Shown here piece after piece: positions 4,035 to 18,606 of a stretch of 26,938 nt of DNA. The notes under the pieces were generated by a model. The model made no database searches. It saw only the letters and a program-made list of their open reading frames with translations, and was not told the origin of the DNA. The stretch is from NCBI GenBank assembly GCA_048941285.1, contig JBHLNS010000035.1, forward strand, positions 9,992 to 36,929, given 5' to 3'. The translations under genes and the position numbers were made by a program. Source of the DNA: Promethearchaeota archaeon. Lineage in GTDB: Archaea > Asgardarchaeota > Lokiarchaeia > Sigyniarchaeales > SOKP01. The first letter of the stretch is position 1. Each line of letters starts with the position of its first letter.

Positions 4035-4321
4035 TTTCCTTTATTTTATTCAATAATTCATTTTTTTATTATAATTTCAAGACTAAATATATTTTAAGGA
4101 AGTATACCCTATAAAGAATAAAAACGTTGTACACATTGATTTTAGAGCATGAATTAATGAAAATTATTAATTAAAGACGAGATTTTTAATAAAGAAATTC
4201 ATACTCTTGATAGTTTGTTTATAATGGGTAATTTTTTATTGTTTGCTTTGTTATTTAAACAAAAGTTTATTTAAATAAATGTCAATAATATTCATTTAAG
4301 ATTTTAAGAGTTCTAGAACAC

Positions 4322-5512
4322 ATGATTCTCTCATTTCCAAACATGGGTCCAAATTGGGTAGCATTTAAAACCTTGTTTGAACAGTTAGATCCATCGATAA
4401 GAGTTGTGATTCCAGATCCGACAAACCGAGAAGCGATCAAGATTGGAGTAAAATACAGTCCAGAATTCGTTTGTTTCCCATTTAAAGCAACTTTAGGAGA
4501 TTTTGTAAATGCTATCAAAAAGGGAGCAGATACTTTAGTTATGGCTATCGATTGCGGACCCTGTAGATTTGGGTTTTATCATGCTGTCCAAGAACGCCTT
4601 CTACATGATATGGGTTATAAACATGTGACTGTTATTCCATTAGATCAAGCAGATTTATTAGAATTCCACTGGGTTAAAACTCTACAAGACGTTAGTGGAA
4701 AAAGTGGGCTTTTTGCGTACCCAAGATTTATAAAAGCTGTGATTTTTTTCATGAAAAAAGCCAAGCTTTTACAAGATATTCAAACTGCAGAAGGGTTATT
4801 TCGTGCATATGAACGAAATCAGGGAGATACTACTGAAGTATTAAATAGTATATTAAATAAGCTTGATCAAGCCAATACGATCAAAGAACTCAGAAATTTC
4901 AAAAATGTGATAAAAGAAGATTTTAATAAAATTGATGTTGACAAAACTCGAACTCCTTTAAGGGTTGCAATATTTGGTGAAATTCATATAAGTATGGAAC
5001 CATATGTAAACGTGGATATTAGACGTAAGTTTGGAGAAATGGGTGTTGAGATACATCAAAATTTAAGTTTGTGGGATTGGGTATCACATAAATTTCACCT
5101 TAATTTCAATAGAAAATGGTTAGAACATTTATCCCATCCTTATGTTCCGATGGATATTGGTGGTGAATGCCAATGGGTTTTAGGAGAATATATTGATAGA
5201 GCTCAAACTGGCTTTTCGGGGAGTTGTCACGTGTACCCTTTCACCTGTATGCCCGAGGTTACTGCTAGAACGATTATTACGAATAAACTCAAAAAAATCT
5301 ATGATCTTCCGATAATATTCTTTTCATTCGATGAGCATAGTGGTACAGAGGGTATGCGAACTAGACTCGAAGCCTTTGTTGACCTAATGGAGTCAAGGCG
5401 TAAGCATAAATTGGGAATTGAGAAAATCTCTTACGAAGATGATAGGAATAAATTCTATAAAGAAAATGGAACACATTTTTTTCAGGAATGTCTACAATTA
5501 ATACAAACCTAA
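4322..5512 (+). CDS. Fe-S 2-hydroxyacyl-CoA dehydratase/reductase-like subunit ('CoA protein activase' family; PlsR-like)
   Basis: Motifs SFPNMG, YSPEFVCFPFKATLG, CGPCRFGFY, VAIFGEI, GGE, YPFTCMPE and FSFDEHSGTEGMRTRLEAF, with three spaced conserved Cys as likely cluster ligands. Confidence 0.85.
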   Translation: MILSFPNMGPNWVAFKTLFEQLDPSIRVVIPDPTNREAIKIGVKYSPEFVCFPFKATLGDFVNAIKKGADTLVMAIDCGPCRFGFYHAVQERLLHDMGYKHVTVIPLDQADLLEFHWVKTLQDVSGKSGLFAYPRFIKAVIFFMKKAKLLQDIQTAEGLFRAYERNQGDTTEVLNSILNKLDQANTIKELRNFKNVIKEDFNKIDVDKTRTPLRVAIFGEIHISMEPYVNVDIRRKFGEMGVEIHQNLSLWDWVSHKFHLNFNRKWLEHLSHPYVPMDIGGECQWVLGEYIDRAQTGFSGSCHVYPFTCMPEVTARTIITNKLKKIYDLPIIFFSFDEHSGTEGMRTRLEAFVDLMESRRKHKLGIEKISYEDDRNKFYKENGTHFFQECLQLIQT

Positions 5513-5514
5513 TA

Positions 5515-6549
5515 ATGGTGAATAAAATAGTACAAGTTTCTGATAAAGTGGTTAATGAAGATGGAAAGCTAGACGCTTTTCTTGGAATTGATATTGGGAG
5601 TGTTACATGTAAGTTTGTTTTAATGGACTTAGGTGGAAACGTTTTAACGAGTGTATTTTTACGTAACAGGGGTTCCCCAATCGACTCTGCTAAAGCAGGG
5701 ATGGAAGATTTAAGAGTAAAAATTGAAGAAAATGAAGAATTACAACAGTATAAAATACGGTGTTGTGGAACCACAGGTTCAGCAAGATATCTAACAAAAG
5801 CTATTGTAGGTGGAGATCTCGCTAAAACAGAAATCATTGCTCACGCTGTAGCTACTCAATCACTCTATCCTGATGTAAGAACGATTTTAGAAATTGGTGG
5901 ACAAGATTCAAAAATCATTATTTTACGTGATGGAATTATTGTTGATTTTGCAATGAACTCTGTGTGTGCTGCAGGTACAGGTTCTTTCCTTGATCATCAA
6001 GCATCTAGACTTGGTATTCCAATTGAACAGTTTGGAAACTATGCGGTCAGATCAAAAAATCCTGTTAGCATTGCTGGAAGATGTACAGTATTTGCTGAAT
6101 CTGATATGATACACAAACAAAATGCAGGATATTCAAAAGAAGATATTATTGCAGGATTATGTGATTCATTAGTTAGAAACTATATGAACAATCTATCAAA
6201 GGGTAAGGAATTAGCACAACCAGTTGTTTTTCAAGGAGGAGTGTCATATAATAAAGGAATTATTCAAGCTTTTGAAAGGCATTTAGGATGCGAGGTAATT
6301 GTTCCAAAATATAATGTTTTGATGGGCGCTTTAGGAATGGCAATTCTTGTTAGAGATTATTATTTGGACCACGCACAAGAAACTCTATTCCGGGGTCTCC
6401 ATGTTGGGGATTTAGAGTTCAAGACATCAACATTTCATTGCGGAGACTGTCCTAACAATTGTGAAATTGTCCAAGTTAAAATGCCACAAGACGAGAATAA
6501 AGTTATTGCCCGATGGGGAAGTAGATGTGGAAAGTGGGAGGTTTTCTGA
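5515..6549 (+). CDS. ATP-dependent [4Fe-4S] CoA-substrate-specific enzyme activase (HgdC/BcrAD/BadFG family) with C-terminal Cys motif
   Basis: ASKHA motifs LGIDIGSVTCK, TTGSAR, EIGGQDSK, MNSVCAAGTGSFL, RCTVFAESD and GGVSYN, plus C-terminal CGDCPNNC...GSRC. The ATG at 5515 lies 2 nt after the upstream stop and is preferred over the overlapping ATG at 5488. Confidence 0.92.
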   Translation: MVNKIVQVSDKVVNEDGKLDAFLGIDIGSVTCKFVLMDLGGNVLTSVFLRNRGSPIDSAKAGMEDLRVKIEENEELQQYKIRCCGTTGSARYLTKAIVGGDLAKTEIIAHAVATQSLYPDVRTILEIGGQDSKIIILRDGIIVDFAMNSVCAAGTGSFLDHQASRLGIPIEQFGNYAVRSKNPVSIAGRCTVFAESDMIHKQNAGYSKEDIIAGLCDSLVRNYMNNLSKGKELAQPVVFQGGVSYNKGIIQAFERHLGCEVIVPKYNVLMGALGMAILVRDYYLDHAQETLFRGLHVGDLEFKTSTFHCGDCPNNCEIVQVKMPQDENKVIARWGSRCGKWEVF

Positions 6550-6553
6550 AAGA

Positions 6554-6748
6554 ATGACGGAGTTTTTAAAACAACTAAGGGAATTAGGAGAAGAGTTTTT
6601 TGAAACAATCAAACATAAGACCAAATTAAGTACGATTTTTGATCTCTACACTGAAAAACTTATTCCTACATTTGTTTCAGAAAAAGAATTGAAAGAATAT
6701 TATGAAAAAAGAATGGAAGAAGTTAATGATTTTATTGACAAACTTTAA
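6554..6748 (+). CDS. Small (64 aa) charged helical protein of unknown function
   Basis: ATG at 6554, 4 nt after the activase stop; MTEFLKQLRELGEEFF...NDFIDKL. The ORF track's 6461 start overlaps the activase and is unlikely. Confidence 0.7.
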   Translation: MTEFLKQLRELGEEFFETIKHKTKLSTIFDLYTEKLIPTFVSEKELKEYYEKRMEEVNDFIDKL

Positions 6749-6799
6749 CATAATTAATTTAATTAATTAAAATAAATTAATATAAAAGGTAATGAAAAA

Positions 6800-7501
6800 A
6801 TGAGTGAAAGTGTAAGTGCAGACAATAAAGAAGAAGGAGATAAGTTAAATCCAAAATTAATAGCTTTTGATATGCTTTATGGAGCTGTGAAAGGATTAAG
6901 CGGCTTATTCTTTAAAGCTTTCATGGATTTAAAGATTGAAGGGCAAGAAAACATTCCTTTCAGAGGAAAAGCGATTTTAACCACAATTACACCGAATATA
7001 ATTCGAGATATGTTAATCATCGCTCAGGTATCGGGGCGAAAAATTCATTTCATGCTTGATCCTAAGTTGATGAAACATCAAATAGCTGGCCCTGTTTTGA
7101 AGAGTCTAGGAATGATTCGAGGAACTGAAAGTAAGGAAGATACTGAACCAATCGAGAAAGTTTTTGAGATTTTGAACGAAAAAGGTGACCTTGTTGGTAT
7201 GACTCCAGAATCTAGGCATGATCGTGAAGTACAGATTAAATCTATGGCAGCAATTATAAAATTTGCGATTGCAGGAGATGCTCCAATTATTCCAATTGCA
7301 ATTACAACACATAAAACTAAGATTCTAAATATGTTTACTGGAGATGGAATAAAAGTAAAGGTTGGAAATCCTTTACATATCGAAAAGCGATTAAACCGAG
7401 AAAAAAATCGAGCTGAACGCTATGAGCTTGCAGAAGATATAATAAACATCATCGATTCGCTCAAAGAATCCCCAGATCTCGAAGAAATTAATAATAATTA
7501 A
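6800..7501 (+). CDS. PlsC/lysophospholipid acyltransferase-fold protein with degenerate catalytic motif
   Basis: LKIEGQENIP..GKAIL, IHFML..KLMK..IAGPVLKSLGMI, VGMTPESR (cf. FPEGTR), APIIPIAI and IKVKVGNP. Block I reads TTITPNIIRD instead of NHxSxxD. Confidence 0.8.
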   Translation: MSESVSADNKEEGDKLNPKLIAFDMLYGAVKGLSGLFFKAFMDLKIEGQENIPFRGKAILTTITPNIIRDMLIIAQVSGRKIHFMLDPKLMKHQIAGPVLKSLGMIRGTESKEDTEPIEKVFEILNEKGDLVGMTPESRHDREVQIKSMAAIIKFAIAGDAPIIPIAITTHKTKILNMFTGDGIKVKVGNPLHIEKRLNREKNRAERYELAEDIINIIDSLKESPDLEEINNN

Positions 7502-9429: not shown

Positions 9430-10578
9430 ATGGTTGACTTCATTAAATTAAAAGGAAGTCCTGCTCAGAGAGGTTTTCAGCAGGGGGAGCAATTAAAAGA
9501 TAAAATTCGTAATACATTTGATGTTGTCTTCCATTCAGAAATGTTTTCAGAAGTTACATCCAAATTAATTCCCCTCTCGATTATAAAACTGGCTTTAGGT
9601 ATTATAGGTAGAAGAAACATAAAGAAATCTTTACGGGAATTACTTCCAAATCAATATGAGAAACTAAATGCTCTTAGTAAAGGATCAGAAATGAAGGAAA
9701 GATTGCTCTATGGTGCCCATTTTATAGAAGTAATGTCAGGTGATCCAAAATCTCTCTATAAAAATCCTCCAGTGCAATCATGTTCAATGATATTTGCTCT
9801 CCGAAAAGCTACTTCAGATAATTCGCTTATTTTTGGAAGAAATTATGATTTTCCTAATGTTCTTCAACCATTCCAAGTAGTTCGTGAAGATGTCCCAGAT
9901 AACGGATATAAAAATTTAAATTTCACACAATATCCATTAATAGGTTGCCATATGGGCCTAAATGAAAAAGGGTTGGCAATTGGATATAATTATGGTCGAT
10001 CATGGAAAAAGGAGCCACTTGATTTTAGATTAAAAGGTATTCCAGGTACGTTCATAGTTCAAGAAGTTTTAGAAATATGTTCAACAACCGAACAAGCTAT
10101 TAACTATATAACTACATTCCCTAGTCGGGCTAACGGTTGTCATTATGGACTTATGGATGCATCTGGTGATACGTGCGTAATTGAAACTACGAGCACTCGA
10201 CATGCAATTCGTCGACCAGAGGCGGGAATTTTAGCTCATACAAATCATTATCAGACTAGGGAACTAAAAGATGCTAATTTACCCGACTACGTAAGGTTTA
10301 AAATGGATGATATGGATATAAATCCTATAGAATCCCCGATAAGGCGTTATAAGAGGGAATTTAAGCTTTTAAATACCTATAATGGTCAAATTAATATAGA
10401 TACTTTTAAAAATATTCTAAGCGATCATGATAATAGAGAACCTGATGATTTTACAGTCTGTACACACGGTCCTGCTGCAGGAACTCTTGGATCTATTATA
10501 ATTTTTCCTAATAAAAAGGAATTCTGGGTTACCGATAATCACCCTTGTAGTTCTGAATTTGAGAAATTTACTTTATAA
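9430..10578 (+). CDS. Peptidase C45 / acyl-CoA:6-aminopenicillanate acyltransferase-like Ntn hydrolase
   Basis: LKGSPAQRGFQQG N-terminus, putative autoproteolysis site QS|CSMIF, and motifs GRNYD, GLNEKGLAIG and AHTNHY. Confidence 0.9.
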   Translation: MVDFIKLKGSPAQRGFQQGEQLKDKIRNTFDVVFHSEMFSEVTSKLIPLSIIKLALGIIGRRNIKKSLRELLPNQYEKLNALSKGSEMKERLLYGAHFIEVMSGDPKSLYKNPPVQSCSMIFALRKATSDNSLIFGRNYDFPNVLQPFQVVREDVPDNGYKNLNFTQYPLIGCHMGLNEKGLAIGYNYGRSWKKEPLDFRLKGIPGTFIVQEVLEICSTTEQAINYITTFPSRANGCHYGLMDASGDTCVIETTSTRHAIRRPEAGILAHTNHYQTRELKDANLPDYVRFKMDDMDINPIESPIRRYKREFKLLNTYNGQINIDTFKNILSDHDNREPDDFTVCTHGPAAGTLGSIIIFPNKKEFWVTDNHPCSSEFEKFTL

Positions 10579-17205: not shown

Positions 17206-18606
17206 ATGGTTGAAATATGTGATATTCTTATAGTTGGTGCTGGAACAGCAGGTACCTTTATAGGGTGGCTCCTAGCTAGAAAAGGGTTTTCAGTAACTAT
17301 TATTGAAAAAGATAAGCGAGAAGAAGTTGGAAAACGACTTGATGTGATTCATTTTGAATCAGATAGAGTCAAAAAGGTAGGCATTCCTCCATTTAAAGTG
17401 GGAGATCCTGATTGTATTGAAATTAGAAATACTTCTACAGTCGTAACACCAGACTTTAAAACAGAGATTAAAATAAAAGCACTTCAAACAATCGTAAGAT
17501 TGACACCTTTCCTAAATAAAATGTATAATTTACTTGAGTTAGAGGGGGTTAAATTAGAATTTTCATGCGAGTTTAAAAAACCTGTTTTTAATCATAATGA
17601 ATTAGTTGGGTTAATAGCTAAAAAAGCAGGTGAGAGTATAGAATACAATGCAAAGCTAATAATTGATGCTTCTGGTAAAATTGCGGTTGTAAGAACTTCC
17701 TTCCCAGAAGACTACGGGATGGAAACTTTCAATTTAAGCCCTAATGATGTTATGTATGTCCTACTACAATATATTCGGTGGAAGAATCCAGAACAACCTC
17801 ATCCCGCTATAGATACCAGCTATCAATGGTGGTTATTATGGTTTGGGCCCTCATATGATCCCGATGGCGCAATTTTAGGAGTTGGACAACCTGGTTCTTT
17901 TGAAAATGCACGATTAGCCCGTGAAGATTTTCTCAATAGAGCAAATATTCCTCCTTATGTTGTAGTAAAAGAAGAACAAGGAACTACTCCTTATAGAAGA
18001 CCACCATATTCTTTAGTAGTAGATAACTTTTTATGTATTGGAGATTCTGCTGCAATCACATATCCCTTCTCTGGTCATGGAGTAACTGCAACATGGGTAT
18101 TATGCATGATTGCATCCGGGGTTATAGAAAAAGCTCTAAAGAATGGAAAGTACTTGAATAGAGATATACTCTGGGAAATAAATGTGAAGTATTTCAGAGA
18201 TCAAGGAGCAAAATTTGCCAGTCTTTTTACTCAATTATCAGGAGTATTAAATTTTAATGAAAAAGAATGGAATTATTTTCTAAAAAAAGGATTAATTTAT
18301 CAAACGAGTAATGAAGAAGATATGCCTGAACCAAATAGAGAGTATGAAGAAGAAATGAGTTTAAAAGAAATGTTAAAGTTTTTAGCTAAAATATTAAGTG
18401 GTTTAATTCATAGAAAATTATCTTTTAAACATATGAAGAGGTTATTACAAGTAAATAGACTTGCTGGAAAAATCAAGAAGCATTATGAAAATTATCCAGA
18501 TAAATTTAACGATTTTGAGAGCTGGGTTATGAGAGCTAATGAACTATGGAATATGAAAAAACTCGCTACTAAAAACCTTCATACAATAACCATTGAATAC
18601 CACTAA
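17206..18606 (+). CDS. FAD-dependent oxidoreductase, geranylgeranyl-reductase/FixC-like family
   Basis: DILIVGAGTAG Rossmann motif, LIIDASG and LCIGDSAAITYPFSGHGV. Confidence 0.85.
   Translation: MVEICDILIVGAGTAGTFIGWLLARKGFSVTIIEKDKREEVGKRLDVIHFESDRVKKVGIPPFKVGDPDCIEIRNTSTVVTPDFKTEIKIKALQTIVRLTPFLNKMYNLLELEGVKLEFSCEFKKPVFNHNELVGLIAKKAGESIEYNAKLIIDASGKIAVVRTSFPEDYGMETFNLSPNDVMYVLLQYIRWKNPEQPHPAIDTSYQWWLLWFGPSYDPDGAILGVGQPGSFENARLAREDFLNRANIPPYVVVKEEQGTTPYRRPPYSLVVDNFLCIGDSAAITYPFSGHGVTATWVLCMIASGVIEKALKNGKYLNRDILWEINVKYFRDQGAKFASLFTQLSGVLNFNEKEWNYFLKKGLIYQTSNEEDMPEPNREYEEEMSLKEMLKFLAKILSGLIHRKLSFKHMKRLLQVNRLAGKIKKHYENYPDKFNDFESWVMRANELWNMKKLATKNLHTITIEYH

Follow-up and report, generated by a model that had tools for sequence, protein, structure and literature searches.

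Our study of a 26,938-nucleotide (nt) stretch of DNA from a Promethearchaeota archaeon (assembly GCA_048941285.1, contig JBHLNS010000035.1, positions 9,992 to 36,929; the whole stretch is called the window here) showed that four of its genes, g1 to g4, are half of an ATP-dependent reductase system of the DUF2229 type; the other reductase subunit (Red1) and both catalytic PlsC acyltransferase domains are encoded on a second contig, C82, of the same genome. In related genera the two halves are joined in one seven-gene operon. ATP-dependent DUF2229 ester reductases are a known kind of enzyme; what is new is that such an enzyme is split in Asgard archaea and shares an operon there with proteins of the acyltransferase type. 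With a probability of about 0.55, we favour the reading that the system is a split relative of plasmalogen synthase and glycerol ester reductase (Ger), which would reduce acyl esters made by the linked acyltransferases, its putative substrate being a lipid. The kingdom Promethearchaeati, which holds the Promethearchaeota, is that of the Asgard archaea. The window has a G+C content of about 30% and is the final 26.9 kb of contig C59 of a genome (G000) of 3.55 Mb in 101 contigs that is 94% complete. Its relevant features are:

4322..5512, + strand: g1, Red2, second catalytic subunit of a DUF2229-type [4Fe-4S] reductase, 396 residues (PF09989, alignment, fold)
5515..6549, + strand: g2, ATP-dependent activase with one BcrAD/BadFG domain and a C-terminal four-cysteine tail, 344 residues (PF01869, TIGR00241)
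6554..6748, + strand: g3, conserved 64-residue accessory protein without known family (alignment of 16 orthologs)
6800..7501, + strand: g4, protein of PlsC fold that lacks the catalytic HX4D motif, 233 residues (PF01553, fold match)
4035..4321, no strand: AT-rich spacer upstream of g1, 287 nt, likely promoter region (sequence inspection)

The preliminary description of this DNA had presented four co-oriented genes with gaps of 2, 4 and 51 nt, and the coordinates of the open reading frames (ORFs; 4322-7501, + strand) confirm this. Between the end of a NosD-like gene (4034) and g1, the ORF list holds no + strand ORF of at least 50 residues. An alternative ATG at 5488, which would make g2 overlap g1 by 25 nt, is a possible start; the start at 5515 is favoured because g2 orthologs are 340-345 residues long. 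The g3 ORF as listed opens at a GTG at 6461, and 13 of the 16 ortholog rows have a methionine at the column of 6554. Contigs from RNA libraries (two metatranscriptome runs of one study), 95-99% alike, fall on g1, on the g1/g2 junction and on g4; given their small shares of the sampled words and possible DNA carry-over, they are a weak hint that these three genes are expressed, and nothing follows from stretches to which no contig matches.

Identity of the reductase subunit and the activase

Genes and domains were called from the ORF list with Pfam and NCBIfam (cut-offs of 23 bits for PF01553 and 125 bits for TIGR00241), and the labels Red1 and Red2 for the two reductase halves follow domain names in the available text of PMC12838417. 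Homology firmly identifies g1 and g2 as a DUF2229-type reductase subunit and its activase. Pfam matches g1 to PF09989 (DUF2229) at residues 8-72 only (40 bits) and gives no match to PF06050 (HGD-D) at E ≤ 0.01, a model with which the canonical subunits of the same genome score 127-305 bits; some g1 orthologs do carry precomputed PF06050 matches. A database search with g1 (E ≤ 0.001) returned 940 relatives, the best 120 of which are 72-94% identical to it and of the same length; the names given for these 120 are Promethearchaeota, Lokiarchaeota, Hermod-, Thor- or Odinarchaeota or marine sediment, except that one (P0120) has a bacterial label. Longer relatives fall into two classes: 67 proteins of 694-789 residues with PF09989 and in most cases PF06050 (28-35% identity), and six proteins of 1393-1417 residues with PF01869 and PF09989, two of them also with PF06050 (22-25% identity). 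In both classes it is the C-terminal half that aligns with g1, over about 90% of its length, as in residues 357-702 of P0121, a 706-residue bacterial Red1-Red2 fusion (35% identity), and residues 1032-1387 of P0188, a 1397-residue protein with two BcrAD domains, DUF2229 and HGD-D (25% identity); their N-terminal DUF2229 half is only 22% like g1. Three cysteines of g1 (C51, C81 and C309) are kept in 99% of 131 Red2 sequences, and three cysteines are likewise kept in Red1 (117 sequences).

The fold of g1 agrees with this assignment. Its AlphaFold model (predicted local distance difference test score 89.9) has 20 Foldseek matches in the PDB at E ≤ 0.001 (those listed all at E ≤ 1e-5; template modelling (TM) score 0.43-0.56), and these are catalytic subunits only, all from a single family of radical enzymes: the benzoyl-CoA reductases BzdNO and MbdON, 2-hydroxyisocaproyl-CoA dehydratase and the double-cubane cluster protein DCCP. 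A sequence search of g1 against PDB chains gave no match at E ≤ 10.

The activase g2 has one PF01869 stretch (160 bits) and matches TIGR00241 (acyl-CoA dehydratase activase domain) at 194 bits, over the cut-off. It ends in a CxxCxNxC...GxRC tail. Residues 316-635 of P0188, which comprise its second activase domain and the linker behind it, share 41% identity with g2, the four cysteines included; for the first activase domain of P0188 the value is 39%. The general form of the tail, CxxCxxxC...C, is present in the activases of 18/18 PlsC-linked Asgard, 5/5 other Asgard trio and 24/24 bacterial trio loci, as well as in 7/7 second activase (Act2) domains of fusions, and is absent from all seven first (Act1) domains of fusions and from the three HgdC-like activases of G000. 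Among the activases compared, the four-cysteine tail is thus found only in those associated with DUF2229; that a Cys-rich linker would be a defining feature of fused DUF2229 ester reductases is our own deduction from these motif counts and not taken from print.

These results agree with the preliminary description, which had seen an Fe-S reductase-like subunit, an activase with a CxxCxNxC...GxRC tail, a 64-residue protein and an acyltransferase fold, and had assigned the first two to the domain classes of PlsA/PlsR and Ger; g1 corresponds to Red2 of DUF2229 proteins, and g2, at 41%, to a second activase domain with its linker. The grouping with amino-acid-fermentation dehydratases that it had named as speaking against its proposal was not found: g1 aligns with DUF2229 proteins, and canonical systems, each an activase with two full-scoring HGD-D subunits (127-305 bits), lie at two loci elsewhere in the genome. 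The five PF01869 genes of G000 are all in ORFs of 265-362 residues, and the genome therefore has no fused gene of the PlsA/Ger type.

A seven-gene operon split in the window's genus

The only other DUF2229 gene of G000 encodes Red1. It lies at C82:3-668, where the contig end cuts it, and is a canonical DUF2229 match (140 bits). Directly upstream, on the same strand, are genes for a 558-residue protein and a HAD phosphatase, and the whole second half-system spans C82:3-3399 (L008). The 558-residue protein has two PF01553 domains (192 bits), both with the NHxSxxD and [FY]PEGT motifs, and scores 158 bits with TIGR00530 (1-acylglycerol-3-phosphate acyltransferase; cut-off 103). Full-length Red1 orthologs of 351-359 residues occur in 18 genomes of the same genus.

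DNA around g1 orthologs was mapped with phmmer and in part checked with Pfam. Within the genus, the order g1-g2-g3-g4 is kept in 8/8 loci fetched, with the NosD-like gene upstream in three and a Na/Ca exchanger gene downstream in four. In other genera of the same family, the series HAD - 2xPlsC - Red1 - Red2 - Act (activase) - g3 - g4 is contiguous at four loci (L145, L146, L148 and L150); L144 has the same seven-gene series with inserted DNA, L149 a partial one, L147 is cut at g1 and L151 shows Red2-Act-g3 only. The order is HAD - PlsC - PlsC - Red1 - Red2 - Act - g3 - g4 in G026 (L050) and 2xPlsC (cut) - Red1 - Red2 - Act - g3 - g4 in G034 (L056). Family f2, which includes two one-contig genomes, has PlsC-PlsC-Red1-Red2-Act at five loci and PlsC-Red1-Red2-Act at two (Pfam check on L052 and L053), and in families f5 and f6 (L142 and L143, genomes G264 and G317) a protein of 872-876 residues with three PF01553 stretches is followed by HAD (490 residues), Red1, Red2 and Act. 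No PlsC was seen at L057 (f2) and L058 (f4), both on short contigs. The synteny check across Asgard genomes that the preliminary description had proposed thus finds the PlsC linkage conserved, as a seven-gene operon and in several families of the class, and the complete operon strengthens the proposal made there. Its reading as a split operon like plasmalogen synthase or Ger holds as regards a split relative; the window itself has only half of the enzyme, and its clade is separate from the fusions.

Two further observations concern these loci. L142 also has a LarA-like gene, and the HAD gene at L148:5770-6552 matches the mitochondrial phosphatidylglycerophosphate phosphatase model PF09419 at 28.5 bits (cut-off 20.4), which hints at a substrate of the phosphatidylglycerophosphate type; the HAD protein of G000 has no match to this model at E ≤ 0.001.

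Since the operon is contiguous in sister genera and families, the ancestral state is a single operon, which was split between Red1 and Red2 in the window's genus. An assembly artefact was considered as the source of this split and rejected: about 14 kb of unrelated genes, with no second PF09989 match, lie upstream of g1 on C59, and the NosD-like gene precedes g1 in three other genomes of the genus. Contig breaks are nevertheless frequent near Red1 or g1 in this genus. Related genomes also have 5'-end fragments of g1 (60-97% identical over the first 60-110 residues) and stop-bearing copies, at sites that include G003:C29:78568-78801, G219:C86:4194-4409, G016:C88:11482-11652 and G024:C36:8188-8811; the fragment in G003 lies about 16 kb downstream of Red1. 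Together with the contig ends near Red1 and g1, these fragments suggest a rearrangement hot spot between Red1 and Red2.

The accessory proteins g3 and g4

Neither Pfam nor NCBIfam has a family match for g3, whose 16 orthologs have a mean column identity of 81%. A profile search of 1.84 billion representatives gave eight matches, all of 42-94 residues, and by this measure g3 is restricted to this lineage. It always directly follows the activase. Weak g3-like ORFs (E 0.015 and 0.085) also directly follow the activase in families f2 and f5, where g4 is missing, and given these, the partner of g3 may be the reductase or the activase. A complex prediction for g3 with g4 scored 0.00, which counts neither for nor against binding.

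The match of g4 to PF01553 scores 33.5 bits, and in fold it is most similar to Thermotoga maritima PlsC (5kym; E 5e-7, TM 0.60), followed by LpxM, PatA and GPAT. Its best 120 relatives have an Asgard label or none, and their annotation reads lysophospholipid acyltransferase. The APIIP motif is kept in g4 orthologs (11-row alignment), motif III ([FY]PEGT) is replaced by TPE[SA][RK] in 14 of 16, and HX4D is missing from all 16, so that g4 is probably no acyltransferase. Proteins of the g4 type, publicly annotated as PlsC, are by their motifs probably non-catalytic. The linkage to a glycerolipid acyltransferase fold that the preliminary description had stressed is therefore upheld for the fold (PF01553 and 5kym) and not for the activity of g4. 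In family f2, four of five loci have a second PlsC gene that likewise lacks HX4D, and the triple-PlsC proteins have one strict HX4D. The loss of the motif in both g4 and the f2 protein makes a non-catalytic PlsC fold beside catalytic ones a recurring feature of the system.

Distribution and coexisting systems in Asgard archaea

In a phylum-wide sample of 301 genomes, g1 orthologs of at least 48% identity are found in the window's class: in 54/68 genomes of family f1, 7/7 of f2, and the single genomes of f5 and f6 (1/1 each). Families f9 (25/28) and f31 (11/11) have only relatives of 27-36% identity, without a detected PlsC, and the g1 query found nothing in the remaining families of the sample (0/76 in f11, for example). 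All three PF01553 domains found in G000 sit in the two loci, as do 11 of 15 in the operon loci of five other genomes; one further PlsC-like gene lies elsewhere in each of G032, G038 and G079, and G181 has one sub-cut-off match.

Other DUF2229 genes are seen beside this system. Adjoining g1-g4 in G003 (L047; C19, 10307-14515) is a divergent second copy, made up of a 616-residue Red1-containing ORF, an activase and a Red2 that is 39% identical to g1; ORFs of about 413-444 residues, 39-41% identical to g1, occur in about 11 other f1 genomes and adjoin g1 in five. Some Lokiarchaeia add a second, bacterial-like trio without PlsC (L163; G038:C1:4243500-4246700), and G032 also has a 1482-residue fused gene (L162), so that up to three DUF2229 systems per genome are possible. 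In the complete genome G006 (L169; C1:714000-730000), a divergent 3-hydroxyacyl-CoA dehydrogenase gene, an 865-residue protein with two BcrAD/BadFG stretches and DUF2229, and a 462-residue ORF whose C-terminus faintly resembles Red2 (hhalign probability 71%) lie near NosD-2xPlsC-Red1. The 865- and 462-residue pair looks like a two-gene system of the fused type, judging by these domains. Similar open frames, of about 985 residues, are present in G015, G019 and G024.

Bacterial relatives and phylogeny

Species genomes were scanned with an alignment built from the ~700-residue form; of the 80 loci obtained, 79 are bacterial and one is archaeal, and in 63 of the 80 a g2-like activase follows Red1 and Red2, separate or fused. 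These bacterial trios are the closest relatives of the Asgard system (28-35% identity). Their neighbours vary. At 9 of 23 bacterial loci, all of spore-forming Bacillota (L062, L064, L065, L067, L069, L077, L111, L122 and L129), the trio is immediately downstream of the spoVA operon (SpoVAC/AD/AE and a GerA-family gene), often before a diaminopimelate-decarboxylase-like gene; this adjacency hints at a sporulation-linked role of the bacterial trio. Three of the 23, in Desulfobacterota (L072, L074 and L088), have MMPL transporter, radical-SAM/SPASM, methyltransferase and SRPBCC neighbours, and at a Dehalococcoidales locus (L131) plsX follows the activase. The Desulfobacterota and Dehalococcoidales contexts are lipid-flavoured, without PlsC.

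Red2 trees rooted on Red1 were made with FastTree (78 rows) and IQ-TREE in quick mode (39 rows), with rows picked from 130 Red2 and 116 Red1 sequences. In both, the PlsC-linked Asgard proteins, the remaining Asgard trios and the fused ~1400-residue proteins each make up a separate, well-supported clade; in the FastTree tree the fused clade includes the Asgard 1482-residue fusion of G032. Because the clades are separate, we regard the system as a sister variant of the PlsA/Ger-type fusions and not as a member of their clade.

Other genes of the window

The neighbours of g1-g4 in the window are unrelated to them. Upstream are the NosD-like gene, which encodes a beta-helix protein, and a UbiA gene on the other strand; downstream of g4 follow the convergent Na/Ca exchanger gene, a GNAT gene, a gene for a C45-family protein and others. 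Two of the window's genes may be archaeal lipid genes:

507-1355, - strand: UbiA-family prenyltransferase (48-52 bits with DGGGPS-like models, far below their cut-offs)
17206-18606, + strand: geranylgeranyl-reductase-like FAD protein (161 bits with the DGGGPL reductase model, cut-off 580)

Both lie outside the operon as it is seen in other genera. The preliminary description had pointed to the UbiA gene 3 kb upstream as context; in the operons of other genera it is HAD and PlsC genes that precede the reductase genes, and the UbiA gene, which is on the other strand, scores only 48-52 bits and is absent from those operons, was rejected as a part of the system. A C45-family autoproteolytic acyltransferase/hydrolase is encoded at 9430-10578 on the + strand (NF040521, 159 bits; Pfam AAT and CBAH).

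Proposed function and alternatives

By homology with its activase type, g2 would use ATP to drive a low-potential electron onto its partner's iron-sulfur clusters, probably acting as a homodimer. The partner, as is partly shown, would be a Red1/Red2 heterodimer in which g1 is Red2 and the C82 gene supplies Red1, each with three conserved cysteines. It would reduce the acyl-ester carbonyl of a glycerolipid, dehydration would then yield an alk-1-enyl (vinyl) ether, and further reduction an alkyl ether; for PlsA/PlsR, the available text of PMC8788747 proposes two one-electron reductions, protonation and dehydration. The two PlsC domains with HX4D that are encoded next to Red1 would supply the ester substrate, probably starting from acyl-CoA, and the HAD phosphatase would trim phosphate. 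More speculatively, g4, which has a long N-terminal helix in addition to the loss of its catalytic histidine, might hold or present the acyl-lipid at the membrane, and g3 might be a small accessory subunit of the reductase or activase. Tentatively, and at somewhat less than even odds, we propose that this is a Lokiarchaeia-type "acylate, then reduce" operon which makes fatty-alk(en)yl ether glycerolipids, either plasmalogen-like or mixed.

A number of observations weigh against an acyl-ester reductase acting on lipids. The predicted function is taken over from fused relatives that are 22-25% (g1) and 41% (g2) identical, and the fused ~1400-residue clade carries its label by architecture alone. 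The phylogeny that the preliminary description had proposed accordingly gives the Red2 subunits a clade of their own, but one that stands beside fused proteins known by architecture only; this PlsC-linked clade is outside the fused clade, and the trees support no particular order of the clades and the bacterial trios at the deep branches. None of the 79 bacterial loci has a PlsC-like ORF by phmmer (the archaeal locus alone has one), and PF01553 is absent from the 138 neighbours of the 23 bacterial loci checked with Pfam, so the acyltransferase linkage is, among the loci examined, specific to the Asgard class, and the lipid link rests on one archaeal class. The lost HX4D motifs of g4 and of the second f2 PlsC count on the same side, as do the division of the operon into two loci in this genus and the lack of an intact g1 ortholog in four of its genomes (G006, G015, G019 and G024). 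PlsX, the GpsA C-domain and acyl carrier protein (ACP) were not found in the 94%-complete G000, although a PlsY-like gene is present; since PlsX and ACP were not found, acyl-CoA would be the likely acyl donor. Finally, published analyses of a single cultured Lokiarchaeota representative, the one that the available text of PMC13400652 discusses, found archaeal lipids only, by a method that may have missed others.

It is possible that the reductase acts on a CoA thioester, such as a 2-hydroxyacyl- or enoyl-CoA, and tailors the acyl-CoA that the PlsC-type enzymes transfer, instead of acting on a finished lipid ester. The fold of g1 matches 2-hydroxyisocaproyl-CoA dehydratase and benzoyl-CoA reductase as well as DCCP, the public annotation of the family reads "acyl-CoA dehydratase activase-related", a 3-hydroxyacyl-CoA dehydrogenase gene adjoins 2xPlsC-Red1 in G006, and the bacterial trios have no PlsC neighbour. 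We nonetheless consider this explanation unlikely: in the available texts of PMC13159169 and PMC8788747, the DUF2229 members with tested activity all act on lipid esters, the operon contains no CoA-transferase, CoA-ligase or acyl-CoA dehydrogenase at the Asgard loci checked with Pfam, in the window or on C82, and G000 has separate, full-scoring HGD-D systems.

Another ester lipid could also be the substrate, for example an archaeal backbone, glycerol-1-phosphate or a mono-isoprenoid lyso-lipid, to which an acyl group has been added and whose reduction would lead to mixed isoprenoid/alkyl ethers, or a neutral or amino lipid. Such a substrate would fit the combination of a PlsY-like gene with no GpsA found, the ability of bacterial PlsY and PlsC to accept both glycerol-phosphate stereoisomers (PMC13400652, available text), the presence of geranylgeranyl-reductase-like and UbiA genes in the window, and weak NCBIfam matches of the PlsC proteins to lyso-ornithine-lipid acyltransferase. 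We think it quite unlikely; the UbiA and geranylgeranyl-reductase-like genes, whose NCBIfam scores are far below cut-offs, are not in the operon of other genera.

A very unlikely explanation is that the system is a general ATP-driven, low-potential reductase of the DCCP kind for an unrelated small molecule, linked to PlsC by co-regulation. Complexes of DCCP with its reductase DCCP-R (7yzm and 6eno) are the top Foldseek matches of g1, and the bacterial trios stand in unrelated contexts (spoVA in 9/23, MMPL transporters in 3/23). DCCP has six cysteine ligands for an [8Fe-9S] cluster, whereas the three conserved cysteines of each half of the Asgard reductase would be the pattern of single [4Fe-4S] sites and not of a six-cysteine double cubane. 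The PlsC, Red1, Red2 and Act genes, moreover, are packed with gaps of a few bases in at least five families, as is typical of one pathway. That the genes are a decaying relic which no longer cooperates in this genus, as the position of Red1 and g1 on different contigs in 15/15 same-genus genomes with both located, the four genomes without intact g1, and the fragments and stop-bearing copies in relatives might suggest (Red1 is kept in G006, G015 and G019 and was not found in G024, which has a g1-like stretch with three stops), is hardly credible, since g1 is full-length without stops and keeps its cluster cysteines (13 of 16 full-length same-genus matches are 81-92% identical to it, and all 16 are 74-92% identical), g3 and g4 are highly conserved, and RNA-library contigs match g1, g2 and g4.

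If the reading as a split, lipid-directed ester reductase is correct, it changes how several genes of these archaea are understood. The available texts of PMC6737245 and PMC13400652 cite PlsC and PlsY homologs for Loki/Asgard genomes, and that of PMC13159169 describes a DIAMOND screen (at least 30% query coverage) which found Ger homologs in both Lokiarchaeota and Heimdallarchaeota; in these texts the homologs have so far been treated as scattered genes, and we found no published description of this operon in the literature searched. PlsC homologs that have been cited for bacterial-type ester membranes would then be parts of an ether-lipid machine, and the location of all PF01553 domains found in G000 within this system suggests that the acyltransferases feed an ether-making reductase and not a bacterial-style ester membrane. 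This would bear on the change from isoprenoid ether to fatty-acid lipids in the ancestor of eukaryotes, and with a defined seven-gene set it can be tested whether the archaea most closely related to eukaryotes have ether lipids based on fatty acids. Apart from the Asgard operon, our analysis delimits a bacterial three-gene form of the DUF2229 family that is widespread and uncharacterised.

Comparison with known systems

With PlsC (5kym), the Asgard system shares the fold and public annotation of g4 and, in the 558-residue protein, two complete PlsC domains; unlike PlsC, g4 has no HX4D motif in any ortholog, and acyl transfer by the known mechanism is unlikely for it. The 2-hydroxyacyl-CoA dehydratases HgdAB/HadBC, with their activases HgdC/HadI, and the class I benzoyl-CoA reductases have the catalytic-subunit fold of g1 (3o3m, 8s02 and 9gai; E 5e-8 to 8e-6) and the activase domain of g2. 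They differ in that g1 has no PF06050 match, g2 has the four-cysteine tail and the Asgard genes lack CoA-metabolism neighbours. DCCP, likewise part of an ATP-dependent two-component reductase with DCCP-R, is the best structural match of g1 (7yzm, 6eno; E ~1e-8, TM 0.5-0.55), at a sequence identity of 11-13%; the Asgard reductase has three conserved cysteines per half.

Ger (Tmari_0479 of Thermotoga maritima and SHJ90043 of Desulfatibacillum alkenivorans) is a single chain in which two PF01869 domains are followed by PF09989 and PF06050, according to the available text of PMC13159169. The 1393-1482-residue proteins that align with g1 and g2 share this architecture, and the predicted ester-to-ether chemistry is alike; in contrast to the single ~1400-residue polypeptide, the Asgard subunits are split, and G000 has no such fusion. 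Split subunits of 340-440 residues would not be able to reach the 30% query coverage required in the screen of PMC13159169, and the Lokiarchaeota Ger homologs reported there may be a separate fused gene such as the 1482-residue ORF of G032.

The last comparison, one of domain architectures, is with plasmalogen synthase, which is PlsA/PlsR in Clostridium perfringens and has a single-gene form in Enterococcus and Lactococcus. The available text of PMC12838417 divides this enzyme into the domains Act1, Act2, Red1 and Red2 and places it in the 2-hydroxyacyl-CoA dehydratase family. Unlike PlsA/PlsR, the Asgard system consists of three genes with one activase domain in place of two (g2 has a single PF01869 stretch, and no second activase is present in the operon at any Asgard locus mapped) and forms a separate clade. 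Its operon adds PlsC-type genes, a HAD phosphatase, a 64-residue protein and a degenerate PlsC fold; the bacterial relatives examined have no such neighbours. Like PlsA/PlsR, it comes from an anaerobe, is by homology predicted to depend on ATP and iron-sulfur clusters, and has an activase, the first and second halves of a DUF2229 reductase and a Cys-rich linker.

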